Assembly (NCBI GenBank): GCA_016931625.1
Contig: JAFGEK010000020.1
Location: 39,110 to 103,109, forward strand
Direction: 5' to 3'
Length of the DNA: 64,000 bases
Origin: Deltaproteobacteria bacterium
GTDB lineage: Bacteria > Myxococcota > XYA12-FULL-58-9 > JAFGEK01
Both the position numbers and the translations under genes were made by a program. The first letter of the stretch is position 1. Every line of letters begins with the position of its first letter. Below the pieces are notes generated by a model. That model did no database searches and was not told the origin of the DNA. It saw nothing but the letters and a program-made list of their open reading frames with translations. This document shows positions 36,711-62,547 of the stretch, piece by piece.

Positions 36711-37191
36711 TTCTCCAACATTAGCCGCTGGTGTTATTTGATTACTATTTATAGTCAACATTATTTGCTCCTTTTTTTAAAATGCCGTTAATATTAGCAA
36801 AAAGTTATATTAAATATTGTTGTAAAACACTTTTAGGTGTTGCCGGAAAATATGTAAAGTAGTTGCTTTGAAAATAGTCTTTAACGAAAATGTTACAAAC
36901 TAACCGCGTTACATAATTTATGTCACAGTTATGTTGCATGCGGTTAAGAGTGAAACGTGCGATAGCATTACTATGCTTATATTATTAAAATAAAATGGGT
37001 TAAGTCTTTTTGTTTGTCGCGAAAATGATTCAAACTTGTTGCTATGATTTTACGCCATCGTAATCTCTTTGTGTGAATATAACTTTGTATGAATTATTTA
37101 AATTTGGCTTCATATCAATACAGTAATCTTTCAGATCTAAACATTGGTTATTTGTTATTACCGGTTGTGGTATAAAAAGGAGAGCAGTATA

Positions 37192-39468
37192 ATGATTGAA
37201 ACAGCCAAACAATTATTGGCTTATAATTTGCCTGAAAATATTTCATTTTCTTCAAACGAAGACCAAACTAAAATTATTAATGATAATAAAAAGAAATTAA
37301 CTCTTCCTAAAAAAAGAATTGGTTTTACTTTTGATTCATCTGTAGCTGTAGCACCAGAAGCTACTAAATCATTAGTAAAATTTTATCAAGGTATCGATAG
37401 TAATCGCGCGCATAGCGATAAAGTAACACCGGCTATTTCAGATAAAAATAAAAAGTTATACCTACCATCAAAAAGTACTTGTTTGTTTTCTGATTCATCA
37501 TTAACTATGCCATCTTCATTAAGTGTATCTTCAACACAACTGGGATTTAATCTTGTTAGTAAAAATGGCATCATCGGGAACAACATTTATTATAAAAATA
37601 TTGAGGATGTTATTGATGCGTTAAATAAAGCGAAAATGGTTCAGGATGCGAGTGCAGAAAAAATAATAAGGCAACAATTTAATGAACTTAAAAAACAATT
37701 GCCACAGTTTCAAAGAATTTTTAATGAATTACAAATCACAGAATCACATTTGTTGAAATGGTTAGCAACAGGAAGCATTCCGAACAATGTGATAGAGGTT
37801 TATATAAGGCATCAGCAGGCTGACAATAAATCAAAATATCTAGAAAAGAAAATAGCAAACAGTATTTACTTGTTACTTAAATATGGTGAGTATGTTGCCC
37901 ATTTTCGCGGCGAGATAGAAGCTGAAACAGGAGAAAATCCGCTGCTGCTTACTATGCAGGCTATGCAAACCAAATTTTGGCAAAAAGAACAAAATATTGT
38001 TGTAAGTAATGCTACAAATATTTTTTATAATCTTAAGGATAATAGATTTAAATTAGCGATGGCCGAGCATAGTCTTGATAGTTTAAACGTAAAGTTAAAC
38101 TATCAAGTCTTAAATCTATCCCCAAATGATGAAGAAATCATCAAGACACAAAAAATGGTCGAGCGTGCTAAAATAGCAATTAATAATTATAGCGATCTTA
38201 TTGCCAATCAAGAGAAAGCCGCACGTTCAGTTTTAACAAGTTTGTATCAGCGGCATGCCAAACGAGTTACCCAAAAAACACATAATAATGATCCTGAGCG
38301 CCTTAATGCTGGTCGTTATGCAGCAGCGAATGCTGTAGTGGAAGCAGATGTTAAACATAAAATTGATGCAACTGATATTGGCAATGAAATCAAAAGCGCT
38401 AAACAAATTGAGTTATTACTAATAAATATAAGAACCACACTACATTGGGTCCAAGAGACAATTTCAATCAACACATATTGGACAGAAGACAGCATTACTC
38501 GTGCTGATATAATAGAAGCTTTAGAAAAGATTAGACCACAACTGCAATCAATTCATGAGATACTGCGCAATGAAAAAGTAAATGAAATAAATGATAATAC
38601 CATCGTCGAAATAGCAAAATACTATGCAACGGCAGTTTTTTGTTTAAGTGATGCCTATGAAGCAGAGGCCGATGATCTTGAACAACAATGTCAAGTATCT
38701 GCAACCCCACAAGTGGGAGTAAGATTAGCTCTTCTCTGCCACAATGCTGCGATGTTATCACTCGAGATTGCTGAAATAGAACTTTTGGCGGCAGATGCGC
38801 GCGTCTCTATGGAAGTTGGCAAGAAAACCTTTGATGAGCAAGACGAGCAAAAACTAAATCTCCATGATTTTGTTAATTACCTCGAAGAACGAGCAGCAGA
38901 TAAGGATACCCAACTAAAAGCTTATCAAGAAACCTTAAAAAAACTTAACTCTTTACCAATATCTACCTTAGGAGCAACCTATCCAACTCAAATTTATAGT
39001 ATCGTTGGTCGTAATGAGTTGCAAATACTCTATACTACTTGGAGGTTACATAACTCCCAAAAAGAATACGACGCAATAATTAGTCAACGAGATGAGTTTG
39101 CTGCACGTCTTACCGCAGGAGCTTGGCCTGAATATCAAAAACAAAAGCTAAAACTGCAACTCTCCAAAACAGAAAAACAAAAGACTAAAGAAAATTTACA
39201 AATCAAAATTAAAATACTGGATAAAAAACGTAAGGTAGAAATTGCTCAAGAACAAAGCAACAAAGAGACGCAAAACTTTCTTGATTCTCGTATGACTGAC
39301 GTTATCATTGGCGAAGAATTTTTGATTCCGTTTAATAAAGCAAATCCGTTAATAAATCTTCAAAGTGCTGGTGTCGGCGATATCTACATAAAAGCATTTG
39401 ACGCATCTAAAAGAAATTCCATTATATGGCATCAACGTGAAATAAATGCGTTGTTAATATATTGGTAA
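37192..39468 (+). CDS. Large hypothetical protein (758 aa). Lys/Glu/Gln/Asn-rich, predicted helical or coiled-coil, no signal peptide, no recognisable domain.
   Basis: A long ORF in a low-GC island. ATG at 37192 with AGGAG 9 nt upstream (the ORF-track start at 37144 is probably too early). No catalytic motifs found by eye (no HExxH, GxSxG or CxxC). Confidence 0.6.
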   Translation: MIETAKQLLAYNLPENISFSSNEDQTKIINDNKKKLTLPKKRIGFTFDSSVAVAPEATKSLVKFYQGIDSNRAHSDKVTPAISDKNKKLYLPSKSTCLFSDSSLTMPSSLSVSSTQLGFNLVSKNGIIGNNIYYKNIEDVIDALNKAKMVQDASAEKIIRQQFNELKKQLPQFQRIFNELQITESHLLKWLATGSIPNNVIEVYIRHQQADNKSKYLEKKIANSIYLLLKYGEYVAHFRGEIEAETGENPLLLTMQAMQTKFWQKEQNIVVSNATNIFYNLKDNRFKLAMAEHSLDSLNVKLNYQVLNLSPNDEEIIKTQKMVERAKIAINNYSDLIANQEKAARSVLTSLYQRHAKRVTQKTHNNDPERLNAGRYAAANAVVEADVKHKIDATDIGNEIKSAKQIELLLINIRTTLHWVQETISINTYWTEDSITRADIIEALEKIRPQLQSIHEILRNEKVNEINDNTIVEIAKYYATAVFCLSDAYEAEADDLEQQCQVSATPQVGVRLALLCHNAAMLSLEIAEIELLAADARVSMEVGKKTFDEQDEQKLNLHDFVNYLEERAADKDTQLKAYQETLKKLNSLPISTLGATYPTQIYSIVGRNELQILYTTWRLHNSQKEYDAIISQRDEFAARLTAGAWPEYQKQKLKLQLSKTEKQKTKENLQIKIKILDKKRKVEIAQEQSNKETQNFLDSRMTDVIIGEEFLIPFNKANPLINLQSAGVGDIYIKAFDASKRNSIIWHQREINALLIYW

Positions 39469-41399
39469 AAGATGATAAGGCTAAAATATCAGAAATGTTT
39501 ACCCAGACTGCGTTGGCTTGTCTGCGACAAATATTTTTTGGTACTAATTTTGCATACAGTGAAAGCACAGGTTTCTATAAGCTGCTTGATGAAATTAAAG
39601 ACATCGTTACCATCTCGTCTCAAAATGCCGTTAGCTCTTATTATAATACAATTATGTCTGATTTGAGTTATGGGATTGAACAGATAAAAAGACAAATGTT
39701 TGATGAGCTAACAGAACAACAAACCTTTGCGACGGTTAAAGGTATAGACTGTATCAGTGATAAATATGATGCATTTCGTGATCATGGTGGTTTAGTTGTT
39801 GGTACTATTTTTGGGCGTATCAATAGAGGAATATCGCAAGATAAAAATCAACAAAAACTGTCTGATGAAATCAGTGCGCTAACAAATATTGCAAAACAAG
39901 ATTTACAAATGGCTATAGATATCTATTGTCGACTTACAAAAGAAGAGGAGCGCTTAGCTTATATAACTGCATTACGCAGCAATAACGCTGAAATGTTGTC
40001 TCAATTTTGTAATAACAATTTTTTACAAGCCCAAGCCATAATAAACGCATGGAATACTACTAATACCGGTCAATTGTTTGTTGGTACGAATGAAACTGAG
40101 GGCATATTTTTAAATGAAGCAATTACTCAAAGCCTGGATCTTACTCAAGTAGTATTTGCGCCAAATCTACCTGATGTAAATTCTCGCCTTGAAAATTTAC
40201 AGATTAGTACGGAGAAAACAACTAAAAACCTACAAGATAATTGGGTTGCTCTCCAAGTACTCGATGTTGCAACCTTGATGCTACTAGGTGGAGCCGTAGA
40301 AGCAGCTGGTGTGGCTACTCTTGCTCAAGCCAGCAATCTAGTTAAAATATCTACTACCGCCAACAACTTAAGTAAAGGGACACAAGTACTTATATTCGCT
40401 AGTCGTGGTGTTTTGGCGGTTAAAAAAGGATTCCAAACCTTTCAAAAAGCAAAAACCATACTAATTAGCCCAATACGTAACCAAGTAATTAATCTACCAG
40501 GTGTAGTAGGTACTTCTGGGCGCTTTCTTTATGATCTCGCTTATTACCGCACCATTGGGATGACACTCGATGTTATTAATACCAGTGCTCATAAAGCTTT
40601 TGGTAATGACAGTAATAGAGCCGCTTTTGTACAACTATTAGTAATGATGACCAAGCTTGGTCCCAGTTTTAATCCATATCGAATTGGCATTTCTGCAGGT
40701 TTTGAAGTTGGGATTGAAAAACTTTATCAAGAAATCGAGAAAATGCCAGAGCAGGCATTAAATCAGGCGGTCAACGGACATTTAACTCCTGCACAAGAAA
40801 AGGCACTAAAACAAAAAATGATTATGTGGCATTACATAGGTCGCGCTACAGTTGATGTTACTAAAATTTTAGTAAGACGCTGGCAACGTTATAATTCTGG
40901 TACAGAGGCAACGACCCAACAACAAGTTACTGAACTTTCAAAAGTTTTACGTAATAATGGGGCAGTTATAACCTCTGGTACGACATTAGCTCTTACCAGT
41001 TTATTGCGTGGCTATTCATTATCTCTCTGTGAAGTCGGCCATTTTCGTCAGCCACCATCAGTTTTTGAAAATTATCGTAGCTCAATAATTAAAGCATTAG
41101 GAAGTAATGCTTGCCCACGCGCACAAGTAGCATTGCGCGAGTATCTTGATGATCAATTACTGGTCCTTGCAGCAGAACGCTCAGGATTAGATAAACTTCA
41201 ACCAAATAACGATGTTGTTAACACAGAGGTACTAAATAAAAGTATTGAAAGCGTCAAAAATGATTTAATGGCGTTTGGTGTAGCGAAAACAGACGAAGAA
41301 GCCGAAAAATTAGCGCGTGAGCATATTACTAACTGTGTTTTACTTAGTGCTTTGTGTGATACTTCCAACGAAAGAACTAGTAATAAAGTCATAAAATAG
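39462..41399 (+). CDS. Large hypothetical protein (about 645 aa) with a central Gly/Ala-rich hydrophobic segment, translationally coupled to 37192..39468
   Basis: A 7-nt overlap with the upstream gene. TTG at 39462 or ATG at 39495. Central segment VLDVATLMLLGGAVEAAGVATLAQA. No recognisable domain. Confidence 0.55.
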   Translation: MVKDDKAKISEMFTQTALACLRQIFFGTNFAYSESTGFYKLLDEIKDIVTISSQNAVSSYYNTIMSDLSYGIEQIKRQMFDELTEQQTFATVKGIDCISDKYDAFRDHGGLVVGTIFGRINRGISQDKNQQKLSDEISALTNIAKQDLQMAIDIYCRLTKEEERLAYITALRSNNAEMLSQFCNNNFLQAQAIINAWNTTNTGQLFVGTNETEGIFLNEAITQSLDLTQVVFAPNLPDVNSRLENLQISTEKTTKNLQDNWVALQVLDVATLMLLGGAVEAAGVATLAQASNLVKISTTANNLSKGTQVLIFASRGVLAVKKGFQTFQKAKTILISPIRNQVINLPGVVGTSGRFLYDLAYYRTIGMTLDVINTSAHKAFGNDSNRAAFVQLLVMMTKLGPSFNPYRIGISAGFEVGIEKLYQEIEKMPEQALNQAVNGHLTPAQEKALKQKMIMWHYIGRATVDVTKILVRRWQRYNSGTEATTQQQVTELSKVLRNNGAVITSGTTLALTSLLRGYSLSLCEVGHFRQPPSVFENYRSSIIKALGSNACPRAQVALREYLDDQLLVLAAERSGLDKLQPNNDVVNTEVLNKSIESVKNDLMAFGVAKTDEEAEKLAREHITNCVLLSALCDTSNERTSNKVIK

Positions 41400-46702: not shown

Positions 46703-49700
46703 TTAATTAACTTCATCCGGTCCAATATCAAAAATACCATCACTTGACGGCCGAGTCTGCTGTTCAATATCTTGGCTAATATTAGAGGTACTATTATCTA
46801 ATGACGCACCATTATTTCGTGCTGGCGACACTGCCGATAAACGCGTTTGAGAATAATCCCAATTTGCACTAGGCTCGACTAAAAATGGGTCTACAATAAG
46901 ATTGCTTGTGATATTTGGTGTGCCAGCAATTTGATTAATAGTTGCGGCAGAGTAGGTGACCATACTCGTCTCTGGGCCAATAGCCACATAGACGGGTACA
47001 TCACTAGTCGCTAAGTCGTCTTTAGCAATGTACATCAAGTTATGACTAAATCTCGCCATATTGCTCTCTTGTGTGCTAGTTATTTCAAGCACCGCTAATC
47101 GCCGCGACTCATCGATGCTATTGCCTATATTAAATATATTATTAACCAAGCTTATGCCGTCATTGTTGATTTGGTTGAGGTAAATCGCAGTCTGGAGTTG
47201 CCCTGGCGCTGCTAATGCAGTTTCTGGGCTAACCGCAAATAGATTATGATAGGCAGCAACACCAGTTCCGCCATTTTGCCACAAAGCTATCAAATGCTGC
47301 CCCCGATTTGATAAGAATACATTATTAGTAAGTAGTGGGGCGCTGATAGTAGTTGGCGTATCAATCATCGCTGCAGCGCAATTAGTTTGTATTTTGGTTG
47401 TTGAAGCTGTCAGTGTAGGCAAAACACACGAAACTCCGTTAGCATCAAAAAGAGTGCCGACTTGATTGCCAGAGCTAGTACTTAACTCAGTGGTATCGCG
47501 AAAAGCAATAGCGACAATATCGGCGCTAGTATCACTGCCTGAGGTTATGTAGTACCCAGCTCGTATTTCGTTATTGTTAACCACTGCACCGCTGTTGTTT
47601 ATTAACCATAAGCCGGTGGCATGAAGTGGATCAGAAGTAATGTTAGAATTTAATGCGGTTGTTGGTCCACCAGTAATAGCTCCAAAGCCGTAACTGCTGG
47701 CGGATTTACCATTATTTACAATAGAAGCTGTGTTTGTGCCATATAGCAGTAATCCAACAGCGACTAACGGTCCGCCACTGCTTGGCATGTTAAACGCCAT
47801 GTCGGCAATTAAATGATTATTGATAATTTGCAAGTTATAGGAGTTGCCAGCAGTAACAGCTAGACGACTAACATTATCATAACTTGCGTCAATGATGCCG
47901 GCACATAAAAGCCGGCCGGCTTCTTGGTTGGTGATAATAGCATCATTGTCTGCAATTATAGTATTGTCTGAGTGGTCAATACGAATAGCTGCCGAGACGT
48001 CTGCACTCCCGCTAGCGGATATTTCATCATTAGCAAGTATGCTGGCGCTAGGTCTCCCGCCATTAACGGTAGTCATATTAATACCAATTGCTTGAGTAGT
48101 AGTATTACTTGTGCTGCTACCTGAGGCCGAAATCTTTTTAATATGTTGAATGGTAGCACTTGCATTATCTACAATTGCTACCGCTAAACATTCATTAGTA
48201 CAATTTTGTGCTGAAATTGATTCAAGACCATCTAAAACTAAATTCGCTCCATTAGTCTCAGTCGCCTCTACGCGAGCAGCGTTTAATAATGCTCCACCGG
48301 TGACAGTAATTGTGCCGCCGCGCATTTGCAGTTGTGCGGGGATGGCCGTAGTACCGGTCACATAAAGGCCACGGACTGTTGCTGCGTCTGCTGCTATGCT
48401 TTGCAAAGTACAATTAGACAGTAAAACAGTGCTGCCGCTATTATATACTGCTCCTGCAGAGGCATTTTGCGATACTATATTAAGACCAGAAATAGTGCCA
48501 TTATACCCAGAAGAAAAAGTCAATGTCGGTTCAGTATTTGTTACTATGTTGCTACTTTGTAATGTTGCCAAAGGTGTAGTAGCCGGTGTGGTGGCATTAA
48601 CGAAACCAAAAATGCTCGGATGATGGGGTGGGTTAGAATGTTGCTGTGGATTTAATACAAACGGCCCGCGAAAATCATCGCTACCTAATATGCAGATATT
48701 CGTGCCATCATTCCAGGCTTTATTTAAAGCGTTAATAAGTGGCCCCATAGTATTGGAAGCATCGCTACCACTACCATTACCACTGCCGCCATTAGTAGCC
48801 CAAACGCAATTTTCACTGATGATATAAATATTAGCAGTGTCAATTTTTGCACCGTCACTAACGCTAACCGTAATGAGATGAGGAGTAGGGTTTGCCGCTG
48901 GTATAACTGCAGTTACACTGCGCTCCAAGGTAGTGTCAGTGGTATTGCAGGTTCCACTACCAGTGCAAATTAATAAGTTATCGTTATCGGTCCAGCTAAA
49001 ATCCCAACTATTGCCATCTATATCAGCCGCAGTGACAGCGAGTGTAATTTGGCTATCAGCTATTGCCAGCACATACCAATCTTGACCAACAAGACGAGCA
49101 TTGCTGACCTGAATTATTTCTGGGGCATCGTTATTGATAATCAATGACAAACTAGCATCAACGCCATTGCCATCAGCGCCGAGTGTAACGCTATATGTAC
49201 AACTATCGACCGTATCATTAGCAACGATAATAGTAATGTCATAATTATCACCGTTGTTACTAAGAGCCGTATTAATGTCGCTACTATTACATCCACTGGT
49301 TGCTGCAACACTAAGAGCAGCATTAGTTACCGGAACACTATGTTGAATAAGCGCACTAAAGTGGCGCGTTTCATTTGGATGCAAGCTAATCGTTGATCCC
49401 GAAGTAGTTAAACTTACAGTATAAGGAGGGCATAACTCGTCAATCGTTTCATCACAATTATTATCGATACTATCATAGCAAATCTCAGTATTTAACGGTG
49501 AACGGCGATAATCAGTATCGTCACAGTCTTGAGTATGTAATATATATTGGTCGCAATTAGCGAAAGCACCATCAGCGTCAAGATCACGGCAGATAGCACA
49601 GCGCCCCCAAACGTCAGGATCATTATCATTGCAATCATCGCCTAGACCGGCTGGGCTCTGTGGACAAATATTCGGACTGCCAATAATTATTTTTTGGGCA

Positions 49701-50074
49701 TCGCAATGCTCATCCAAATCACTGTCGCAACCGTTATCTATAACTCCATCGCAATCGTTATCTAAATTATCGCAAAGTTCATTTGTGGGTAAATAATTGT
49801 CATAAGCCTCAATGCATTGATTGTCTTGGTTACATAACAATTGATTATTACTGCATAAACCGTTCAAATTAGTAGCTGGTTGGCTGGTACAACCTTCATC
49901 AATGACTCCATCACAATTATTATCGATACCATCGCAAATTTCATTTGTGGGTATACAAGTGTTTTGCTCTGTCTCGATTGGGATGTTAATGATTTCAGTT
50001 TTAGGAGTACGGCTCGTACAATTTGCTAATAAAATCGTTAAAATTGTAAAACTCAACAACCAATTGCACTGCAT
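46703..50074 (-). CDS. Giant surface lipoprotein (about 1123 aa). It has N-terminal MopE-type Cys/Asp repeats (CDGxDNxCDGxIDxGC) and a Thr/Ser/Asn/Gly-rich right-handed beta-helix-like body.
   Basis: ATG at 50072-50074 with AAGGAGG 5 nt upstream. Lipobox LLANC. Three or more copies of E[IL]CDx[IL]DN[ND]CDG[VT]IDxGC plus CNDNDPDVWGRCAICRDLDADG. The remainder is low complexity with ...NxxxN.../beta-helix periodicity. The ORF-track start at 50218 has no signal peptide. Confidence 0.7.
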   Translation of the reverse strand: MQCNWLLSFTILTILLANCTSRTPKTEIINIPIETEQNTCIPTNEICDGIDNNCDGVIDEGCTSQPATNLNGLCSNNQLLCNQDNQCIEAYDNYLPTNELCDNLDNDCDGVIDNGCDSDLDEHCDAQKIIIGSPNICPQSPAGLGDDCNDNDPDVWGRCAICRDLDADGAFANCDQYILHTQDCDDTDYRRSPLNTEICYDSIDNNCDETIDELCPPYTVSLTTSGSTISLHPNETRHFSALIQHSVPVTNAALSVAATSGCNSSDINTALSNNGDNYDITIIVANDTVDSCTYSVTLGADGNGVDASLSLIINNDAPEIIQVSNARLVGQDWYVLAIADSQITLAVTAADIDGNSWDFSWTDNDNLLICTGSGTCNTTDTTLERSVTAVIPAANPTPHLITVSVSDGAKIDTANIYIISENCVWATNGGSGNGSGSDASNTMGPLINALNKAWNDGTNICILGSDDFRGPFVLNPQQHSNPPHHPSIFGFVNATTPATTPLATLQSSNIVTNTEPTLTFSSGYNGTISGLNIVSQNASAGAVYNSGSTVLLSNCTLQSIAADAATVRGLYVTGTTAIPAQLQMRGGTITVTGGALLNAARVEATETNGANLVLDGLESISAQNCTNECLAVAIVDNASATIQHIKKISASGSSTSNTTTQAIGINMTTVNGGRPSASILANDEISASGSADVSAAIRIDHSDNTIIADNDAIITNQEAGRLLCAGIIDASYDNVSRLAVTAGNSYNLQIINNHLIADMAFNMPSSGGPLVAVGLLLYGTNTASIVNNGKSASSYGFGAITGGPTTALNSNITSDPLHATGLWLINNSGAVVNNNEIRAGYYITSGSDTSADIVAIAFRDTTELSTSSGNQVGTLFDANGVSCVLPTLTASTTKIQTNCAAAMIDTPTTISAPLLTNNVFLSNRGQHLIALWQNGGTGVAAYHNLFAVSPETALAAPGQLQTAIYLNQINNDGISLVNNIFNIGNSIDESRRLAVLEITSTQESNMARFSHNLMYIAKDDLATSDVPVYVAIGPETSMVTYSAATINQIAGTPNITSNLIVDPFLVEPSANWDYSQTRLSAVSPARNNGASLDNSTSNISQDIEQQTRPSSDGIFDIGPDEVN

Positions 50075-50325
50075 ACCCGCCTCCTTAAGACAGCGGTCGT
50101 GCTTCTTTTTCCTTGCGCGAAGTGTCGCTATACTTATTTTTATGGCAACACTTTGCATATACTTATAGATCGTAGCCGAAATCCGCGCAGATGCAATTAT
50201 CAAAACTATCATGCTCATTTTGAATAATTTCGAATCTATTCAATAGGAAACTGCTCTAAGCGGTTGCGTCGCGGGTCATCGGTGTGGTACAGCGCCCGCT
50301 TTGTTGGTGATGGAGGTTTTTGGTA

Positions 50326-54187: not shown

Positions 54188-55987
54188 ATGGAGCGAGTTG
54201 AGGGTGAAGCTAAAACCAGACGATACCCACGTGTACCATTTCACACTCATGTCGATGTAAGCGGTAATTCATTAAACATTGCTGGGTTTACTAGCAATAT
54301 TAGCCGTGATGGTTTGGCTTTTAGTCTACCGCTTAAAGATTTGGGCGAAAAAGCTGGTAGATTGCCGGTAGGTACTGAATTAGCTCTGCGTTTGCATCTT
54401 CCAACTCTTCAGGCTCCATTGATCATTAAATGTCAAGTAGCTTGGACTGGCCAGCCTGCCAGAGATTCTGCAGGACGACTTGCGGTTCGTATGGGAGTAC
54501 ATTTTTGTTCCGAACAACCCAGTGTCGACCAAGCTGTTGTCGAGCTTATGGCCAGTTTTCGTCATCGTATAGCTATTATTGATTTTCCTGTAATTGAAAA
54601 AATTAAAGAGACATTAGATGATTTATATCCAATCGAAGAGATAAAGGACCTTGAGACATTAAATACTTCGATGTCTCGCAGTGAAGTCGGATTAATTGTT
54701 ATTGGCAACGGTAAAGGAGATGATGTTTTAATTAAAACGGTTATTGAAATTTTACGGTACACGCAAGTAGAAATTCAACCACCATTATTAGTATGTGTGC
54801 CCGAAGATTCGAAAGCTTTTTCTCAGCTTCCCCCTGATAAATTTAATGTTTTATTTGCCCGCTGGCCAATTAGTGCCTTAGAACTGCGTGCTTTGGCAGT
54901 CAGAAGTGTTGAAAGCCATGCTGTAGCTTTAGAAAATGCCAGATTAAGGTTTGAACTAGAAGGTATGGTTGAACGGCTACAACGTGAAAACCAATTTTTC
55001 AGAGGTAAATTTGTCACCGGCTCTCGTTTTGAAGGAATAATTGGTGATAGTGCACCAATGCGACGCTTATATGAAACTGTTGAACGGGTAGCAGCTTCGG
55101 ACGCGAATGCTATTATTTTAGGTGAAACAGGGACAGGCAAAGAGCTAATCGCTCGTGCTTTATTTTTGCATAGTCGTCGTGCAGATAAACCATTTCTTGC
55201 GCAAAACTGTGCTGCACTTTCAGAATCTTTGCTGGATAGCGAATTATTTGGTCATTGTCGTGGCGCTTTTACCGGCGCGGTTTTGGATCACGCTGGTTTA
55301 TTTGAAGCTGCTGATGGCGGTACCATTTTTTTAGATGAAGTTGCTGAGATGAGTCAGACTATGCAAGCAAAGCTTTTGCGCGTATTACAAAATAAGGAGC
55401 TTCGTCGCATAGGTGAAACTAAAATTCGTCAAATTGATGTACGGGTAATATGTGCAACTCATCGTAATCTTGAGACGATGATTGCCGATGGCAGATTTCG
55501 GGCTGATTTATATTATCGCATTGCGGTTATTTCATTACACATACCACCATTACGTGAACGTCGTGATGATATTCTTGCCTTAGCTACACACTTTTTGGCG
55601 CATTTTGCGGCAGAAAATGGTACCGAGCCCGTAATGGTATCGGCTGAAGCAATGAGATTGTTAGAAGCATATTCATGGAAAGGTAATGTGCGTGAATTGC
55701 AGCACTCTATGGAAAAGCTTGCCATGTTGACTCCGAAAGGAGCACGAATTACTGCTGAAAGTGTTGCTGATATTTTAGGGCGCGAAAAATTAAGCTCGCA
55801 ACAGATAGAAGATCTACAAGAAACCATGCCTTTAGACGCAGCACTTGAAGATTGTGAAAAAAGACTTATCGAAAGAGCCCTGCGTATCAACCAAGGGGTT
55901 ATTGCTAAAGCAGCACGTACTCTTGGAGTAAATCGCAGTACCTTATCAAAGCGTTGCCGACGTTTAGGAATTCAAGCAACTGAATGA
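54188..55987 (+). CDS. Sigma-54-dependent transcriptional activator with an N-terminal PilZ domain (PilZ / linker / AAA+ sigma54-interaction domain / Fis-type HTH)
   Basis: PilZ motifs RRYPR (RxxxR) and NISRDGLAF ([DN]xSxxG). AAA+ motifs GETGTGKELIARALF (Walker A), GAFTGA (the sigma54-contact loop), FLDEV (Walker B). C-terminal HTH VIAKAARTLGVNRSTLSKRCRRLGI. Confidence 0.85.
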   Translation: MERVEGEAKTRRYPRVPFHTHVDVSGNSLNIAGFTSNISRDGLAFSLPLKDLGEKAGRLPVGTELALRLHLPTLQAPLIIKCQVAWTGQPARDSAGRLAVRMGVHFCSEQPSVDQAVVELMASFRHRIAIIDFPVIEKIKETLDDLYPIEEIKDLETLNTSMSRSEVGLIVIGNGKGDDVLIKTVIEILRYTQVEIQPPLLVCVPEDSKAFSQLPPDKFNVLFARWPISALELRALAVRSVESHAVALENARLRFELEGMVERLQRENQFFRGKFVTGSRFEGIIGDSAPMRRLYETVERVAASDANAIILGETGTGKELIARALFLHSRRADKPFLAQNCAALSESLLDSELFGHCRGAFTGAVLDHAGLFEAADGGTIFLDEVAEMSQTMQAKLLRVLQNKELRRIGETKIRQIDVRVICATHRNLETMIADGRFRADLYYRIAVISLHIPPLRERRDDILALATHFLAHFAAENGTEPVMVSAEAMRLLEAYSWKGNVRELQHSMEKLAMLTPKGARITAESVADILGREKLSSQQIEDLQETMPLDAALEDCEKRLIERALRINQGVIAKAARTLGVNRSTLSKRCRRLGIQATE

Positions 55988-55999
55988 ACGTAAAGTAAA

Positions 56000-56027
56000 G
56001 TAGGGGCTAATAATTATTAGCCCCTAC
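56000..56027. terminator. Perfect 28-nt palindrome GTAGGGGCTAATAATTATTAGCCCCTAC, a bidirectional intrinsic terminator between convergent genes
   Basis: A 12-bp GC-containing stem around an AATT centre, with A/T-rich flanks on both sides. It sits between the activator stop (55987) and the SCPU gene stop (56027). Confidence 0.6.
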
Positions 56028-56563
56028 TACCATTGTACAGTTGCTACAATAGTATCGAGATAGTTACCAGCCGGTATGTCTTGGCCTGGTGGTATTCGCC
56101 CATAAATAGTTACAGTTACATTTGAGTTTTTTGGCGGTATAGTTTGGTAATAAGTAGTACCTTCTGTACCATCTCCCCATATATTACTATGTGCTGCGTC
56201 TAAATAGAGATTGTATTGTTGCACATAAGCACCACTTTGCATTTGGCGCGGATTATAGCTGGTAGCACTACCACGGCTAAGGGTTATTAATACGGGATCT
56301 CCATTTACTTGACGACAACGATAAGTGATGCTGCCGGTTGAATCAGTTGGAGTGGCGTTAAAAACATCGTAGGTGCCAAAATTAATGCCTACAGTACCTC
56401 GAATATTACATTTTATCGCCAAGGCAGTATTAGATGCTGCAAACAAAAGAAATACACCAAAAACAAATGCAATAAGTGGTGTTCTTCTTTTAAACCAACC
56501 ATTTGTTTTTTGCCTTGCCTGTTTAAAAATGAGGCGCGGTTGAAAACGGTGGCATATATGCAT
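56027..56563 (-). CDS. Spore-coat-protein-U (SCPU) domain pilus subunit (Csu-type, distal or tip-associated)
   Basis: A signal-peptide-like segment, then the SCPU pattern ...YNLYLDAAHSNIWGDG...GRIPPGQDIPAGNYLDTIVATVQW. Confidence 0.7.
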   Translation of the reverse strand: MHICHRFQPRLIFKQARQKTNGWFKRRTPLIAFVFGVFLLFAASNTALAIKCNIRGTVGINFGTYDVFNATPTDSTGSITYRCRQVNGDPVLITLSRGSATSYNPRQMQSGAYVQQYNLYLDAAHSNIWGDGTEGTTYYQTIPPKNSNVTVTIYGRIPPGQDIPAGNYLDTIVATVQW

Positions 56564-56743
56564 ACATATACTCCAAAAACGATGTCTCGCAATGTTCGTT
56601 TTTACTTAGTTAGTAAAATCAAACAACCGCAATCACATAATTATATTGTATCGTGTTATTTAACATAAGGCATGTTATATACGCAAAAATAGATAACTAA
56701 ATGTTTTAAATAGGAAAGCTAAAATTATATTATTTGTACAGTG

Positions 56744-57283
56744 TTACCATTGTAATGTTGCAACGATGGTATCGTGGTAATTACCTGCTGGTATATCTTG
56801 CCCTGGGGGTATACGTCCATAAATAGTAACAGTTTCGGTTCTGAAATTAGGCGGGACAGTTTGAAAATACGAACTACCTCCTGAACCATCACCCCATATG
56901 ATGGTGCGGGATGCATCGAGATAAAGATTATATTGTAAGGTGAATCCACCATTTTGCATTCGTCTAGGAGTATAACTTGCGGCACCACCACGACTGAGGG
57001 ATAATCTTACTGAAGCGCCTCCGACAAAAAAGCAGAAATAGCTGAAACTGCCAGTCGAATCAGTGGGAGTACTATTAAATACATCATAAGCCCCAAAATT
57101 TATTCCCGTCGATTGGGTAATAAAACAATAAATCGCATGTGCATTGGTAGGGGCAAATAGTAAAAAAAGTAAGATAAACACTGATAGAATATTAAATCTA
57201 CTTAATGTCTTTTTATCATTATAGCTGATAGGTCGGGGTTTAACGACCTTATCAAATTTTTTTATTCCGAAATGGCAATACAT
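56744..57283 (-). CDS. SCPU-domain pilus subunit (paralog of 56027)
   Basis: ...YNLYLDASRTIIWGDG...GRIPPGQDIPAGNYHDTIVATLQW, the same C-terminal pattern. Overlaps the usher gene by 22 nt. Confidence 0.7.
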   Translation of the reverse strand: MYCHFGIKKFDKVVKPRPISYNDKKTLSRFNILSVFILLFLLFAPTNAHAIYCFITQSTGINFGAYDVFNSTPTDSTGSFSYFCFFVGGASVRLSLSRGGAASYTPRRMQNGGFTLQYNLYLDASRTIIWGDGSGGSSYFQTVPPNFRTETVTIYGRIPPGQDIPAGNYHDTIVATLQW

Positions 57284-59646
57284 TTAACTACTCCCAAGTC
57301 GATAAATTGTTCGTCTTTTTGTGGTACAACTAAAGCAAAAATGCAGTTTGTACCGCTATAATATATTGTAGCCTGATAAGTTCCTGAGCGCAGGTTTTCA
57401 AAATAAAATTCAGCATTCGCGCCAAGAGGTGATGTCATAATGCCATTGTTGGTCGCGATGGTTAAATCTCCATAATTTGGTTGAAGTATTTCGTCATCCT
57501 TGATGAGAATGATTTTGCCGATAATAGCTTGCATTTTACGCATCTTTGGCTCTACTAATGCTCCACCTCTATATGGTGGAGCAACTATTACTTCCGATTG
57601 CTCAATTTCATAATTAAAAGGAACATCAGCATCACTTATACTTATGCGATTGCCATAATATGGTAATAAATTGGGCACTAAAAATTCTCCACTAGCATCA
57701 GTTTGACCAATAATTTGATTGTCTAGTAATACGGAGACATCGGGTGTTTTTGGTAAACGTACTAATGCAAAACTATTACTTATTGGTCTGCTGGCTTTAA
57801 GCGACCCGTCAAGCCAAACTAAAGAACCAGTTGCACTTACACTGCCGGTGTTCTGTGCACCATACTCATTATGGATACCATCATAGCTAGCTTCATAGCG
57901 TCCATAATCCCATTGATACTGCATTAACGCCCGTGCGGCACCACCACCAGCGTTAAATGTTTGTAATTCAGAGCGGTAACCGATGCCTTCATTAGGAGGT
58001 AAGGGTTTTTGCATTTGAAAAGTTGTAGTGGCATTTGCACCAGTTTGATGTGATACCGCGGCGCTAGTCGATTGCGGCATTGTGTAAGTCAAGCCTATAA
58101 AAGCAGAGGTAGTAGTTGAATTATCTTCAATTGTTAAATCTGTTGTTAAAAAGAAACTTAACGCACCAAGCTGCCAATTAGTATTAACCGAAAATTGATG
58201 TGTGGCGGTATGGTTCTGATGCACACCTAAATCATAATGTAGTGACAAACCTACACCAAAAGGTAATGGTAATGAAATAAAAGCTGCAGCATCGATAGGT
58301 AATTTTTCAATTTCAGTCGATGAATTAAGGCTGGTGTAAGCATTGTTTTGCACTTGTAGCGAGCCGCCAAAACTAAGATATCGACTAGAGTTAGTATAGA
58401 TTAACGCTCCGGCAGAACCAGTGCGGTTTTCACTAAAACTCATGGCGCCTGCAAGCTCTAATTCACCAATAGGTAAACCCAAGCTAATGGTAGGACCAAA
58501 ATTAGTTTGCCATGGTGTGGCATCAGTGCGACCACCAACCGTCAACCAATCATTAACACCTGTGCGGTAATATCCAAGAACTACAGCTTTACCATAGTCA
58601 AAACTTTTTTGGGTGTTTTCGCGTAGGACCCCTAGATTGACCGAAAATTCCGTAATATCTGGCGATAATAAAGATGCTGCAAAATAATAAGGCGAAATTA
58701 TTTCACGACTTTCGCCAAAAGCATCACGCATAATTACTTCTACCGAACCTCGACCTACTGGTGTTGGAATATTTTCAATATTAAAAGGTCCTGGCGGCAA
58801 TTGTTCACGCCGCAGAAATATCCCATTACGATAAATTTCAATAGTTGCTGGGGTTAATACTGAACCTGAAATACCATGTCCTGGTTGCCGTAAAAAATAG
58901 GGGTCAAGAGCAAAATTACGTGCAACGCTAATACCCGCAAATTGTGCGCTACTACCTAAAAGTCCGGTACTAGCTTGCGCGTCACCAAGAGTCCAGCGCG
59001 TTAGATTTTCTGTGTCATCATAAACAAAATAACTTGGTCCGCGAACAAATTCACCTAAAGTAGTACGTCTGACGCTGTTATAAAGTAGTCCCCAAGGTGA
59101 ATTAAATGCCAACTCAGAAAACCCACTAAAATCGGTACTATTGCTCCAATCAATAGCATAATTTAATAATAGACTGTTATCACGTGGATATTGGATATCC
59201 TTGGGTCGATTAGACCTCATGCTAATAGTCGTCGGTGCAAAAAAATCAGGGGCAGCAGTTAAGCTTAAACTAAGTGTTTGCTCGTCAAAGGTATAAGTTA
59301 TTTTTGGCGCTAACGATTTTAACAACACCATGTCTTCGCCATAAAAAATATTATAAGTACCTTTGGTTTCTTTAATGCCTGCAGCAAGTAAGTCATTAAC
59401 TCGCAAATAAATATCCTTATTAAGTAAATAGATTAACACTTCACCCTTGGGTACTGAATTTACCGACATTGGTACTACTATGGGTAAGGGTAACATAGTG
59501 GGATCTTCAGGTAGATCAGAGATGGCTAATGCTGGCAGACTAATAAAGAAGATAAATATAAATACAGTTCGTTGATGCCGCGCCAAGAGTCGGAATATAA
59601 AATAAAAATAACGTGCTAAAGCACCTATTTTAAGGCCCACATACAT
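57262..59646 (-). CDS. Fimbrial outer-membrane usher protein
   Basis: About 790 aa, signal peptide, large beta-barrel. Positioned between the chaperone and subunit genes as in csuD/fimD-type systems. Confidence 0.75.
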   Translation of the reverse strand: MYVGLKIGALARYFYFIFRLLARHQRTVFIFIFFISLPALAISDLPEDPTMLPLPIVVPMSVNSVPKGEVLIYLLNKDIYLRVNDLLAAGIKETKGTYNIFYGEDMVLLKSLAPKITYTFDEQTLSLSLTAAPDFFAPTTISMRSNRPKDIQYPRDNSLLLNYAIDWSNSTDFSGFSELAFNSPWGLLYNSVRRTTLGEFVRGPSYFVYDDTENLTRWTLGDAQASTGLLGSSAQFAGISVARNFALDPYFLRQPGHGISGSVLTPATIEIYRNGIFLRREQLPPGPFNIENIPTPVGRGSVEVIMRDAFGESREIISPYYFAASLLSPDITEFSVNLGVLRENTQKSFDYGKAVVLGYYRTGVNDWLTVGGRTDATPWQTNFGPTISLGLPIGELELAGAMSFSENRTGSAGALIYTNSSRYLSFGGSLQVQNNAYTSLNSSTEIEKLPIDAAAFISLPLPFGVGLSLHYDLGVHQNHTATHQFSVNTNWQLGALSFFLTTDLTIEDNSTTTSAFIGLTYTMPQSTSAAVSHQTGANATTTFQMQKPLPPNEGIGYRSELQTFNAGGGAARALMQYQWDYGRYEASYDGIHNEYGAQNTGSVSATGSLVWLDGSLKASRPISNSFALVRLPKTPDVSVLLDNQIIGQTDASGEFLVPNLLPYYGNRISISDADVPFNYEIEQSEVIVAPPYRGGALVEPKMRKMQAIIGKIILIKDDEILQPNYGDLTIATNNGIMTSPLGANAEFYFENLRSGTYQATIYYSGTNCIFALVVPQKDEQFIDLGVVKCIAISE

Positions 59647-60400
59647 TTACTGGGAGATCCATGCTCTTGGTCACTGTAGTAAAATCGGTTTCAATGTTTA
59701 AATTTAATGCTTTGCTATTTTTACATTCATCTGCAGTTAATTCCACATTGTAGATTCTTTGGCCGCCTGAAAGGACATACCAACCATCAAAGCTTTGCTC
59801 CTTTATTATGGAGCCTTTGGTATTAGTGATCGAGTAATTAATTTTACGTAAAGAAAAATGCACATTACCTGTATTTAATATGGCAAAACTCACCTGGTGT
59901 TTAGCTAGCACTATTTTTTCGATACTGACACTATGTTTAGCGGTGCCCTGATGAATAAAAATTGGGATACCCAGCTCGGTTAATATTCTTAACTGATTAC
60001 CTTCAGCAGTATTTTTGTCTTTATTATCTGGCGGTAGTTCAGTGACAAATATGCGATATGATTTTTCTATATCACTAGCTTTCACTCTTGTACCCACACG
60101 GATATTTCTTTTCTCTTTAGGTTGAAGCATTAATAAGGTTGGAAAGAAAACAATATCCTGTGTAGGTTTTAATACCATTTCACCATTGTTTTTCTGATCC
60201 CAAGAAAACCCACGTACCTGCAAACGCAGGGTTTCAGCACTATCATTAGTTATCATTAATAAAGTGCTTGAGGTATCTGACGATAGTGTGACTTGCACCG
60301 GTTTGACACTAAATGTGCTTGCAAGTGCAGGGTTAGTTATAAGGAGTAAGTAAGCGGTCAGGATGGGGTAGAGGCAGCGCATGCATAGATTGTAAAGCAA
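59630..60400 (-). CDS. Periplasmic pilus chaperone (PapD/CsuC-like)
   Basis: About 250 aa with a signal peptide. The N-terminal domain FSVKPVQVTLSSD...LLMITNDSAETLRLQVRGFSW is a CsuC/PapD-like beta-sandwich pattern. Overlaps the usher start. Confidence 0.7.
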   Translation of the reverse strand: MLYNLCMRCLYPILTAYLLLITNPALASTFSVKPVQVTLSSDTSSTLLMITNDSAETLRLQVRGFSWDQKNNGEMVLKPTQDIVFFPTLLMLQPKEKRNIRVGTRVKASDIEKSYRIFVTELPPDNKDKNTAEGNQLRILTELGIPIFIHQGTAKHSVSIEKIVLAKHQVSFAILNTGNVHFSLRKINYSITNTKGSIIKEQSFDGWYVLSGGQRIYNVELTADECKNSKALNLNIETDFTTVTKSMDLPVNVCGP

Positions 60401-60427
60401 GGTGCCTTGAGGGTCTAATTATTGTTC

Positions 60428-60931
60428 TTAGAAGTTTACAGTAGCTACTACGGTATCATTGTATGAGCCGGCTGGTACATCTTGACCGGCGCTAACGCGA
60501 CCGTAAACCGTAAAGGGGCGAGGGGCGCTACTGGGTGCTGGAGCTGGAGTTAGCAAATCAGGAGCCGCATCACCCCATGAAGTCGTTCTGCCTGCATCTT
60601 GGTAAAGGTCATATTCTAAATAACCAGTGCCACCGTCATTCATCCGTCGTTGGGTACCAGAAGCATTGACGCCAAGACCAAGACCTATTGTTGTCGTTGC
60701 TCCTTGGGTACAGGTCACAGTCACAGTGCCAGTTGCATCTAGGTCGACGGCCGCGTTAGCGACGATAGGATCGTAGGTGCCAAATGCCAGCGCTGCGGTG
60801 GTGATACTGCAATTATTAACTACTACAGCGCTAACATCGAGGTTGGCAGTAGCAGTAGCAGCCAAAGCTGACGAAGAAATCGCAGTTAAAAAAGCGATGG
60901 TTACTAAACTAATTTTGAATGATTTTGCCAT
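60428..60931 (-). CDS. SCPU-domain major pilin (CsuA/B-like)
   Basis: ATG at 60929-60931 with GGAG upstream, and signal peptide MAKSFKISLVTIAFLTAISSSALA. ...YDLYQDAGRTTSWGDA...GRVSAGQDVPAGSYNDTVVATVNF. The ORF-track start at 61027 would swallow the predicted sigma-54 promoter. Confidence 0.75.
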   Translation of the reverse strand: MAKSFKISLVTIAFLTAISSSALAATATANLDVSAVVVNNCSITTAALAFGTYDPIVANAAVDLDATGTVTVTCTQGATTTIGLGLGVNASGTQRRMNDGGTGYLEYDLYQDAGRTTSWGDAAPDLLTPAPAPSSAPRPFTVYGRVSAGQDVPAGSYNDTVVATVNF

Positions 60932-60989
60932 TTCCGTGCTCCAGTCTAACGCATCCGCAATGCGTGTGTTTTCTTGGATAAATAGTAGA

Positions 60990-61004
60990 GCATTTTTGGT
61001 GCCA
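60990..61004 (-). promoter_or_regulatory. Candidate sigma-54 (-24/-12) promoter. The minus strand reads TGGCACcaaaaATGCT, driving the pilin-chaperone-usher operon.
   Basis: GG-N10-GC spacing is exact. The -24 TGGCAC is perfect and the -12 ATGC has one mismatch to TTGC. It lies about 58 nt upstream of the pilin ATG. Confidence 0.55.
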
Positions 61005-61264
61005 ACTATTAAAATGGTGTTTGGCACTTTTTACATACGAAAAAGTATAATAAAAACAAGGTATTATAATATTGCAGGTGGTAGCTATGGTTACATTAAC
61101 TATGCATATTTTACATAGTTGCGTGTCGATATTCACGCATTTTTAAGGTATTTAAGCAAAATATTCATGCTGATATTATACACCGACATACATGACATGC
61201 TTAATAATTATTCTAAATGTGTTGAATGCACGGAGATGTTTAATAATTTTAGAGAATGGATGGA

Positions 61265-61681
61265 TTAGAAATTCAAAGTAGTGATTACTGTCGAAGCTGG
61301 GGTATTCGAAGCTAGAAGATAATCAGTATCGGTTGAAGTACTAGCTAACATAACGCGTGAGACGTGGATTGCATTTTGGTCAGGCGATGTATTGGAATTG
61401 AGTTTAATGTGCGATGACGTAACTTTGTTTATATCCGTACGTGCGCTAGTAAGCGGATGTATGGTTCCTCTAGTGCATCTGACGGTAATGTTACCTTCGA
61501 GTGTGTCGTTAATGGCTGACGCAGAATTTGCAATTGCACAAGTTGGCATCACTTTAACGCTGACAGTAAGTCTATCACTCTTAGCGGCAAAAACCGTCTG
61601 GCTGCTGAAAAAAACTGAAAATGTAACAAGTAACCAACGCATACTTATTGTTATAAGCAAGGGCAATGCCAAGTTAGGCAA
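61265..61681 (-). CDS. Divergent SCPU-like pilus subunit (minor pilin)
   Basis: Signal peptide (MRWLLVTFSVFFSSQTVFAA), two Cys, and the C-terminal beta-strand ...TVITTLNF, which resembles the SCPU ending. First gene of the cluster. Confidence 0.5.
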   Translation of the reverse strand: MPNLALPLLITISMRWLLVTFSVFFSSQTVFAAKSDRLTVSVKVMPTCAIANSASAINDTLEGNITVRCTRGTIHPLTSARTDINKVTSSHIKLNSNTSPDQNAIHVSRVMLASTSTDTDYLLASNTPASTVITTLNF

Positions 61682-61989
61682 TATCTATAACTAGTTAATA
61701 ATAATAGACTATTAACACAGCATAGGTTATTGCTATGGCTTATCTATGGGGATGCCCTAGGACTCTGGGTCTTTTCTACTTGTAGGTAAATATCTTACTC
61801 TTTACAATGCAGTATTTGTCTATCCAGTATAACTCCTTGATTTGCTAATAATTACCCAAAGTTATAAACAATACTCGATCGCCTTTAAAAAAACTGTTTT
61901 AGAACTTTTGCAGAATGATTTGACGCCTGACTGTGATTATGAAATACAGTTTGCTCTTTTTGGACCAACAAAAACCCAAAGGAGAAGGT

Positions 61990-62547
61990 ATGAGGTATAT
62001 AGATCTTTCGCGTTGTCTGCTCGTAGCGTTTTTTGGTTTAGCGATCGCTGTGGGTCAGCCCGGTTGCGCAACTACCAAAGCTGGTGGTGATGCTCAAGCT
62101 AGTGCTGAAGGTGGCGATGCTGAAGAACCAAACCCCCTCGGTGAAAATCTGGCACTTAACAAGCCAGCAGTCAGTTCTTCTGACGAAAAAGCCGAAATGG
62201 CACCAAAATATGCGGTTGATGGTGATCTCAGCACTCGTTGGGGTTCAAACTTCTTTACTGATCCTGACCCAACAGTTGGCTGGATTTATATAGATTTAGG
62301 CGAAGTCAAGACTATCGGTACCGTAGTTATTACCTGGGAAGCCGCTTATGGTCTTGAGTATCAAATTCTCGTTTCTGACGATGCCAAAGAATGGAAAGTC
62401 GCTTATCACGAGAAAGATGGTCACGTAGGCCGTTCAGTACACAAAATCGACCCTCCAGTTCAGGGTCATTATGTTAAACTCCTTGGTATCAAACGTGGTA
62501 CTGCCTATGGCTATTCACCATGGGAAATCGAAGTATACGAGAAATAA
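61990..62547 (+). CDS. Lipoprotein with an F5/8 type C (discoidin) domain
   Basis: ATG at 61990 after GGAGAAGG. Lipobox AVGQPGC. ...AVDGDLSTRWGS...WIYIDLGEVKTIGTVVITWEAAYGLEYQILVSDD..W is the discoidin/F5-8C consensus. Confidence 0.7.
   Translation: MRYIDLSRCLLVAFFGLAIAVGQPGCATTKAGGDAQASAEGGDAEEPNPLGENLALNKPAVSSSDEKAEMAPKYAVDGDLSTRWGSNFFTDPDPTVGWIYIDLGEVKTIGTVVITWEAAYGLEYQILVSDDAKEWKVAYHEKDGHVGRSVHKIDPPVQGHYVKLLGIKRGTAYGYSPWEIEVYEK

Follow-up and report, generated by a model that had tools for sequence, protein, structure and literature searches.

Among chaperone-usher pili, the archaic or sigma class is the most widespread. To our knowledge, its members are known almost entirely from Csu, CupE, and SMF-1, three systems of pathogens that all carry two-domain tip adhesins. 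In Csu, residues 1–12 of mature CsuA/B constitute the polymerisation (donor) strand, and CsuE, which has no donor-strand sequence and cannot polymerise, is located at the tip of the pilus (PMC4654587, PMC6003481). A four-gene core is recognised in the sigma clade (bioRxiv 10.64898/2026.02.19.706768), and two papers state that a terminator of archaic pili has yet to be identified (PMC10104325; bioRxiv 10.64898/2026.02.19.706768). Here, we analyse a gene cluster at positions 56027–61681 of a 64,000-nucleotide stretch of contig JAFGEK010000020.1 (assembly GCA_016931625.1, positions 39,110 to 103,109), referred to below as the window, from a Deltaproteobacteria bacterium assigned to the Myxococcota. 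Taken as a whole, the cluster probably encodes an archaic chaperone-usher pilus with tip subunits that lack a donor strand, a putative mini-subunit, and a probable control by sigma-54 and cyclic di-GMP (c-di-GMP).

The cluster consists of six co-directional open reading frames (ORFs) on the minus strand, each found exactly where a preliminary description of the window had placed it. In the order of transcription, they encode a putative mini-subunit (ORF 61265–61681), a major rod pilin with a precursor of 167 amino acids (ORF 60428–61027), a PapD-like chaperone of the CsuC type (ORF 59630–60400), an outer-membrane usher (57262–59646), and two tip subunits, A (56744–57283) and B (56027–56563). 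Domains were assigned by Pfam searches of the translated ORFs, and the usher was additionally compared with NCBIfam models. An archaic (sigma-type) cluster had been proposed, and Pfam indeed detects the SCPU domain in three proteins (the pilin at 3.5e-35), PapD_N in the chaperone (5.6e-13), and Usher in the 794-residue protein (4.8e-30). The latter had been named as an usher and clearly is one: the NCBIfam models span residues ~100–752 of 794, a profile of its family aligns residues 70–762 nearly end to end with residues 67–819 of FimD (E 9e-23), and GenBank calls it a 'fimbrial biogenesis outer membrane usher protein'. In the Protein Data Bank, the chaperone matches CsuC only (5.6e-7), with no classical chaperone at E<0.01, and the best matches of the pilin and the tip are CupE1 (8cio), CsuA/B, together with CsuE's pilin domain, the pilin matching CupE1 8cio at 1.4e-6. 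Both columns of the invariant cysteine pair are fixed in the subunit alignment, pilin included. The assignment to the archaic (sigma) class is supported by, and rests on, the types of the predicted chaperone and subunits.

This identity was already evident from the automatic GenBank annotation (locus tags JW841_), which gives chaperone-usher names to five genes out of six (the usher, a fimbrial chaperone, and three proteins termed 'spore coat protein U domain-containing'), lists a sigma-54-interacting regulator, and leaves the first ORF as a 125-residue 'hypothetical protein'. Three points lift the finding above routine: single-domain tips without donor strand, duplicated in this locus; a family of mini-subunits; and the sigma-54/PilZ context. 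In the mechanism that we propose, the subunits would be exported via Sec, held by the CsuC-like chaperone (59630–60382) through donor-strand complementation, and polymerised by the usher through donor-strand exchange, the major pilin (60428–60931) building the rod with its N-terminal donor strand of ~14 residues.

The first of these points concerns the N-termini of the subunits. The predicted mature N-terminus of the pilin is ATATANLDVSAVVVNNC, and 16 residues of alternating hydrophobicity, ATATANLDVSAVVVNN, separate its predicted cleavage site from the first invariant cysteine. In both post-usher proteins, two residues separate predicted cleavage from that cysteine (ALA↓IK-C in tip B, AHA↓IY-C in tip A), and the BLASTP alignment of the tip with the pilin, at 39% identity, starts exactly at the first cysteine. 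N-termini were also compared across related loci, namely the neighbourhoods of six relatives and 80 species-representative loci, all annotated with custom hidden Markov models (HMMs). The representative loci were found by an alignment-based genome scan, a scan with single-sequence patterns having returned no relatives; together, the related loci cover Acidobacteriota/Thermoanaerobaculia, Myxococcota, cyanobacteria, Methylomirabilota, and Marinimicrobia. Measured from the end of the signal h-region to the first cysteine, the median distance is 23 for 78 pre-chaperone subunits, of which 76 fall between 20 and 30, and 9 for 75 post-usher subunits, tip B having a value of 10. Post-usher subunits lack a donor strand family-wide, across ~80 loci. 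Most of them (56/75) are pilin-sized single domains with 122–131 residues from the cysteine to the C-terminus. The tips of the window, of 178–179 residues, likewise carry one SCPU domain (residues 43–176; 7.1e-29 in tip A and 8.8e-31 in tip B) and have a pilin-like 127 residues from the first cysteine to the C-terminus; judged by Pfam domains and lengths, none of the proteins of the cluster is a two-domain CsuE-like tip adhesin.

Having no donor strand and acting as acceptors only, the tips could only form the distal cap that is assembled first; by their sequence and the established mechanism, donor-strand-less post-usher subunits would thus be restricted to the distal end of the fibre. Tips A and B, each accepting a strand and giving none, would be two alternative single-domain caps that replace the two-domain adhesin of the CsuE type. 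It weighs against this reading that the signal-peptide cleavage sites were called by eye or by a simple heuristic. The two tips had been described as paralogs, and they are 65% identical and share the C-terminal motif GRIPPGQDIPAGNY[LH]DTIVAT.QW; at this identity, the duplication is old. Their long N-terminal extensions, which had also been pointed out, are real ORF sequence: inspection for alternative starts found no other in-frame ATG in either gene. Given the spacing between ribosome-binding site and start codon (GGAG, 7 nt, ATG) and the lack of another in-frame ATG, the basic n-regions of ~30 residues appear to be real in both proteins. GenBank retains the long form of one post-usher gene and uses an internal GTG for the other; this start of tip A, at codon 35, has no ribosome-binding site and gives a protein of 145 residues without the n-region. 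The start of tip A overlaps the stop of the usher gene by 22 nt, which suggests translational coupling.

The gene order of the window is mini-subunit, pilin, chaperone, usher, tip, tip: the four-gene core of the sigma clade (pilin-chaperone-usher-tip), enlarged by another tip gene and by a small ORF upstream. It does not correspond to csuA/B-A-B-C-D-E, as had been suggested, since the chaperone gene is third rather than fourth, and two genes follow the usher gene. In the ~80 related loci, the dominant layout is one to four SCPU genes, chaperone, usher, and one short SCPU gene; a tandem pair of short post-usher SCPU genes occurs in the window only, among the loci examined. A subgroup from Thermoanaerobaculia places a pilin gene between chaperone and usher genes and has an apparently two-domain post-usher protein of ~300 residues. 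The order pilin-chaperone-pilin-usher was seen in ten loci of Thermoanaerobaculia/Acidobacteriota (L011, L017, L019, L023, L025, L026, L028, L039, L074, and L075), whose post-usher protein starts with a cysteine-containing SCPU-like segment and hence looks two-domain; L011 and L028 each have two such genes of ~300 codons in tandem. The pilin (60428–60931) is 62% identical to that of locus L004, and the tip is 55% identical to its relatives, as compared with 36% for the chaperone and at most 40% for the usher (the loci compared include L004:3712-4227 and L002:7329-7811); a protein search returned no relative of the usher above 40% identity. Structural subunits are therefore better conserved across phyla than the assembly machinery. 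In pathogens, the usual pattern is the opposite.

The second point is the product of the first ORF. The preliminary description had called it a minor SCPU-like subunit and had counted all four subunits as SCPU proteins; this holds for three genes (1e-29 to 1e-35), but 61265–61681 fails the SCPU model search, the outcome that the description had itself taken as grounds for withdrawal, and by the Pfam criterion its product is not an SCPU-domain protein. A C-terminal SCPU strand motif had also been proposed for all four. It is common to the distal pair, and the corresponding STVITTLNF of the first ORF agrees with it at six of nine positions. From its most plausible start, ATG 61642, the first ORF (likely gene 61265–61642, JW841_01620) nevertheless encodes a precursor of 125 residues with a good signal peptide (MRWLLVTFSVFFSSQTVFA). 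The mature N-terminus, AKSDRLTVSVKVMPTC, has hydrophobic residues at positions -10, -8, -6, and -4 from the cysteine, which is the register of the pilin (L, V, A, V); a second cysteine lies in RCTRG, and the C-terminus reads ...TTLNF.

Several comparisons relate this protein to SCPU subunits over a limited region. The custom SCPU HMM gives a weak colinear match of 11.1 bits, and hhalign reports a probability of 73% over mature residues 3–43. In a rank test, the mature protein was compared by phmmer with 9,400 stop-to-stop ORFs of related loci, 2.2% of which are SCPU subunits. The latter made up 19 of the 30 top matches, against a mean of 3.3 and a maximum of 12 for 40 shuffled controls, and the signal came wholly from the N-terminal 45 mature residues (25/30); the other 61 gave 2/30. 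Behind the non-SCPU matches of this test was a recurrent family of short secreted proteins (mature length ~72–140 residues), with the pattern (K/S)RSxVxVSVxVVxxCxI, ~20-27 residues, x(R/K)C(S/T), and a final T(L/V)x(I/L)(E/D/N)F. Its members have no Pfam match. A profile of the family, built without the window ORF, finds further members at 1e-16 to 1e-18 and canonical pilins bearing a donor strand at 1e-7 to 1e-4; after one iteration, the window ORF obtains a score of 23.3 bits against it (E 3.7e-5, with 9,608 ORFs searched). Counting the window, the mini-subunit gene occurs in 17 loci, of which 14 others remain once the duplicate L004/L034 and the partial L005 are set aside. It usually directly follows the tip gene, on either strand, and is upstream in the window and in L005. 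A search seeded with an alignment (A1) returned only divergent SCPU subunits of the L006 type; the score of the first ORF itself was circular in this search and was not used. Two proteins, P0020 and P0021, were considered as homologs of the first ORF and rejected as unrelated cysteine-rich repeat proteins.

We judge it rather probable that the first ORF is a real member of the mini-subunit family, related to SCPU subunits only in the donor-strand/A-B region. An alternative is that it is what decay has left of a duplicated pilin gene, or that it arose by chance, and that the cluster has only five genes; this is rather unlikely. A series of observations weighs against a functional mini-subunit. 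Pfam gives no match for the first ORF even at E<=10, SCPU included, and no homolog was found by a word-index search of 5.8 billion clusters and an index-free search of 1.84 billion representatives. By its coding statistics the ORF is ambiguous, its dicodon score being 0.082 versus 0.154 for the antisense frame. No Shine-Dalgarno sequence precedes the ORF, which is separated from the pilin gene by 330 nt. AlphaFold2 models are of low confidence and unusable (pLDDT, the predicted local distance difference test, of 35 for the sequence alone and 44 with the alignment), and, as noted above, the similarity to SCPU is limited to ~45 mature residues and vanishes in the C-terminal half. Against a decayed or random ORF stand its intact reading frame, a good signal peptide, a donor-strand pattern in the pilin register, both family-invariant cysteines, and the terminal aromatic residue, as well as a higher score against the profile made from other loci than against canonical SCPU and the recurrence of equally short subunits in 16 other loci.

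If the first ORF is indeed a mini-subunit, its product would be a reduced pilin-like protein, most likely a low-copy minor subunit. A low-copy structural role, as an adaptor or as a terminator or anchor, is conceivable because the donor strand and the C-terminal strand are kept and most of the body is lost; a function as assembly terminator in particular is speculative. In the csuFABCDE locus of B. thailandensis, an unannotated small ORF lies on the opposite strand directly after csuE (PMC12124856). The mini-subunit genes of L004, L050, L054, and L062 have the position and orientation of this small ORF, a likeness of placement alone. The most far-reaching scheme would make the mini-subunit, a protein reduced to the donor strand, the A and B strands joined by a disulfide, and the C-terminal strand, the missing terminator or anchor of archaic pili, which would donate its strand to the final rod subunit and could not be extended, and would combine it with a cap-only type of tip and with c-di-GMP/sigma-54 switching between the two caps; we regard this scheme as a long shot.

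The third point is the regulatory context. The window was scanned for the sigma-54 consensus TGGCAC-N5-TTGCW. With at most one mismatch, four sites were found in the 64 kb, two of which, both minus-strand, precede the first two genes of the cluster. The site TGGCACCAAAAATGCT (60989–61004, minus strand, one mismatch) has the GG-N10-GC of a -24/-12 promoter and predicts a transcription start at ~60978, 47 nt before the ATG of the pilin gene, so that the pilin operon would probably be transcribed from it. The second site, TGGCATTGCCCTTGCT (61656–61671, minus strand), lies only 14 nt before the ATG of the mini-subunit gene, and its function is doubtful because the implied leader is only ~3 nt. Enrichment was assessed in the 43 related loci with a complete upstream window, keeping GG and GC fixed and requiring at least 10 of 11 consensus positions: seven sites were observed upstream of the first pilin gene, as against 0.21 expected from the background of the loci themselves (~33-fold, P~3e-9), all of them 174–254 nt upstream of the codon for the first cysteine.

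Convergent with the cluster, 40 nt from its last gene, is a predicted enhancer-binding protein (54188–55987, plus strand, MBN1959612) that combines PilZ (PF07238, 2.2e-11), Sigma54_activat (1.6e-68), AAA_lid_14, and HTH_8. The preliminary description had noted this PilZ-sigma-54 regulator, and its motifs are intact when the translation is read: RxxxR (R11-R15), NxSxxG (N37ISRDG, N37-G42), the Walker A motif GETGTGKE, and GAFTGA. A perfect inverted repeat, TGCGTG-N8-CACGCA (61120–61139), is located 116 nt upstream of the -24 element and is a candidate binding site for the activator; it has no other perfect copy in the window, where four matches with up to two mismatches compare with 2.2 expected. 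A repeat search of the regulatory region gave nothing convincing beyond this 6+6 repeat. The hairpin at 61120–61139 was also considered as a terminator of the first ORF and rejected, since it lacks a following T-run on the minus strand. The PilZ-AAA+-HTH activator would probably switch on the promoter at 60989–61004 in response to c-di-GMP, whose binding to PilZ is predicted, and thereby place the pilus under c-di-GMP control. Such a chain is consistent with the general action of c-di-GMP in adhesion.

Sixteen of the 80 loci have a sigma-54 activator within 8 kb, and the arrangements are of at least five kinds. In five loci from Thermoanaerobaculia (L014, L024, L029, L031, and L037), a receiver-type sigma-54 activator lies convergent ~630–680 nt after the tip gene, in parallel with the window. 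L014, L024, and L029 have a sigma-54-like site ahead of their first pilin gene; in L037, one was seen in the first-pass scan only, and L031 has no upstream sequence.

Several facts count against this regulatory model. The pairing of activator and promoter draws solely on their adjacency and on the motif; having a site and having an activator nearby are only suggestively associated (Fisher P = 0.058); all five sampled activators of other loci have a receiver domain or no recognised sensor, the PilZ-bearing form being confined to the window among related loci; and no rpoN appeared among those ORFs of the window that were examined. A literature search gave nothing usable on PilZ-sigma-54 fusion proteins. 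One may suppose that the motif is fortuitous, that the PilZ activator serves other genes, and that the pilus operon is driven by sigma-70. Such an explanation could appeal, in addition to the weak link just mentioned, to the 62 matches of the motif in the window when two mismatches are allowed, to the convergent rather than divergent activator with a binding site that is a candidate only, and to an AT-rich region with -10-like hexamers upstream of the pilin gene. We consider it improbable. Sites with at most one mismatch are few in 64 kb, and half of them stand on the correct strand before the first two genes of the cluster; strict sites are enriched at a consistent position before the first pilin gene; a sigma-70 scan of the region yielded eight promoter-like sites as against 19 expected; and Thermoanaerobaculia loci with the site repeat the arrangement of a convergent activator 3' of the cluster.

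Two further readings concern the assembled structure. The SCPU domain is named after protein U of Myxococcus, and a chaperone-usher-like system of M. xanthus, Mcu, has been implicated in coat formation, for which our literature search gave no confirmation. The name of the domain, together with the fact that many related loci have a deltaproteobacterial/Myxococcota affinity, could point to a system that assembles a surface or spore-coat layer instead of a pilus, as proposed for protein U. This is very unlikely, as the same usher clade is found in Acidobacteriota, cyanobacteria, Methylomirabilota, and Marinimicrobia, which form no myxospores, the structurally solved SCPU assemblies (Csu and CupE) are all donor-strand-exchanged filaments, and the pilin of the window has a canonical donor strand. 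That the two post-usher proteins are adaptors or minor components of the rod, resembling CsuA and CsuB, which they match in number and to which their single pilin-sized domain and their similarity to the major pilin might assign them, is barely credible, because an adaptor must donate a strand, for which the tips have two residues where the pilin has 16, and because their genes occupy the position of CsuE and CupE6, down to the overlap with the usher gene.

Reading of the DNA indicates that three of the ORF starts, those of the pilin, the chaperone, and the first ORF, are over-extended. The likely start of the pilin gene, ATG 60931, which is also that of GenBank, is preceded by GGAG and 7 nt and opens a signal peptide, MAKSFKISLVTIAFLTAISSSALA; the extension of the ORF from GTG 61027 adds 32 codons and runs over the sigma-54 promoter. 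The most plausible start of the chaperone, ATG 60382, gives the signal peptide MRCLYPILTAYLLLITNPALA and the 250-residue form on record. The GenBank start (222 residues) would remove this signal peptide. The starts chosen in GenBank for the chaperone gene and for tip A look doubtful, if not wrong. Between the convergent genes, a hairpin with a 13-bp stem (55999–56028), found by a terminator scan and by reading of the sequence, is probably a terminator in both directions and would mark the 3' boundary of the pilus operon. On the other side, a gene for an F5/8 type C (discoidin) protein (61933–62547, plus strand, by Pfam) diverges from the cluster. The preliminary description was right about its domain, and the designation as a lipoprotein finds no support: the N-terminal hydrophobic segment ends in GQPGC, where QPGC is not a canonical lipobox. 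No link between this protein and the pilus is established.

Beyond the flanking regulator and discoidin genes, the window has genes of housekeeping function (encoding SecD, SecF, riboflavin synthase, cytochrome bd, and the E1 component of pyruvate dehydrogenase, PDH), from which it follows that the cluster is chromosomal. Dicodon scores are low across the cluster (0.08–0.41) compared with neighbouring genes outside the training set (0.50–0.56), which may reflect either a horizontal origin or the Thr/Ser/Asn-rich composition of secreted beta proteins; the region of the pilin gene has the highest GC content of the cluster (0.449). Elsewhere in the window, two large adjacent ORFs of 774 and 645 residues (37144–41399, plus strand) have no Pfam match at 1e-5, and a protein of 1171 residues (46703–50218, minus strand) has a MopE-type metal-binding motif as its sole match.

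The basic picture of chaperone-usher assembly is unchanged by these findings. In the window and ~80 environmental relatives, however, the common form has a single-domain tip without donor strand, and, if our reading is correct, such subunits define a widespread 'cap-only' type of tip. Many of these environmental loci have a sigma-54 promoter upstream, and a fraction carry an unannotated mini-subunit, which offers a concrete candidate for the terminator question raised in recent papers on archaic pili. The fusion of PilZ to an activator would, if it acts as predicted, provide a simple and direct route from c-di-GMP to pilus transcription.

Compared with Csu of A. baumannii (csuA/B-A-B-C-D-E) and CupE of P. 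aeruginosa (cupE1-6), the locus belongs to the same archaic (sigma) class. They have in common SCPU-fold pilins, an N-terminal donor strand, the invariant cysteine pair, a CsuC-type chaperone, an usher, and a tip gene that follows the usher gene and overlaps it. Identity between the proteins of the window and the solved Csu and CupE proteins is low, with E-values of 1e-3 to 1e-7. Whereas three canonical pilin genes precede the chaperone gene in Csu and CupE, the window has one, and whereas Csu and CupE present a two-domain tip adhesin with hydrophobic fingers, the window encodes two single-domain subunits without donor strand, together with the additional short mini-subunit. Control also differs, being exerted by BfmRS in Csu, by PprAB in CupE, and probably by sigma-54/PilZ in the window. 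The closest gene order is that of SMF-1 from Stenotrophomonas, the minimal sigma-clade operon in the classification of Nuccio and Baumler, which has the same four-gene core; relative to it, the tip gene of the window is duplicated, uniquely among the loci examined, and a mini-subunit gene is added upstream.

The remaining parallels are of logic rather than of descent. AfaD and DraD, of the Afa/Dr fibres, are pilin-sized single-domain caps that accept a donor strand, have none of their own, and sit at the end of the fibre. The predicted tips of the window would follow a similar logic, by analogy with a system that belongs to the classical class and has no sequence relationship to them. PapH and FimI, the terminators of classical pili, are possible functional analogues of the mini-subunit in that it has a donor-strand-like segment and is single-copy and non-major; it is much shorter and not homologous, and as a terminator it would have to share their defining property, a groove closed to donor-strand exchange. 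Finally, FleQ and the activator of the window are both AAA+ proteins of the sigma-54 type tied to c-di-GMP and to surface-adhesion genes, the latter by prediction. FleQ binds c-di-GMP via its AAA+ domain, whereas the activator of the window has a dedicated N-terminal PilZ domain in the place of a receiver domain.

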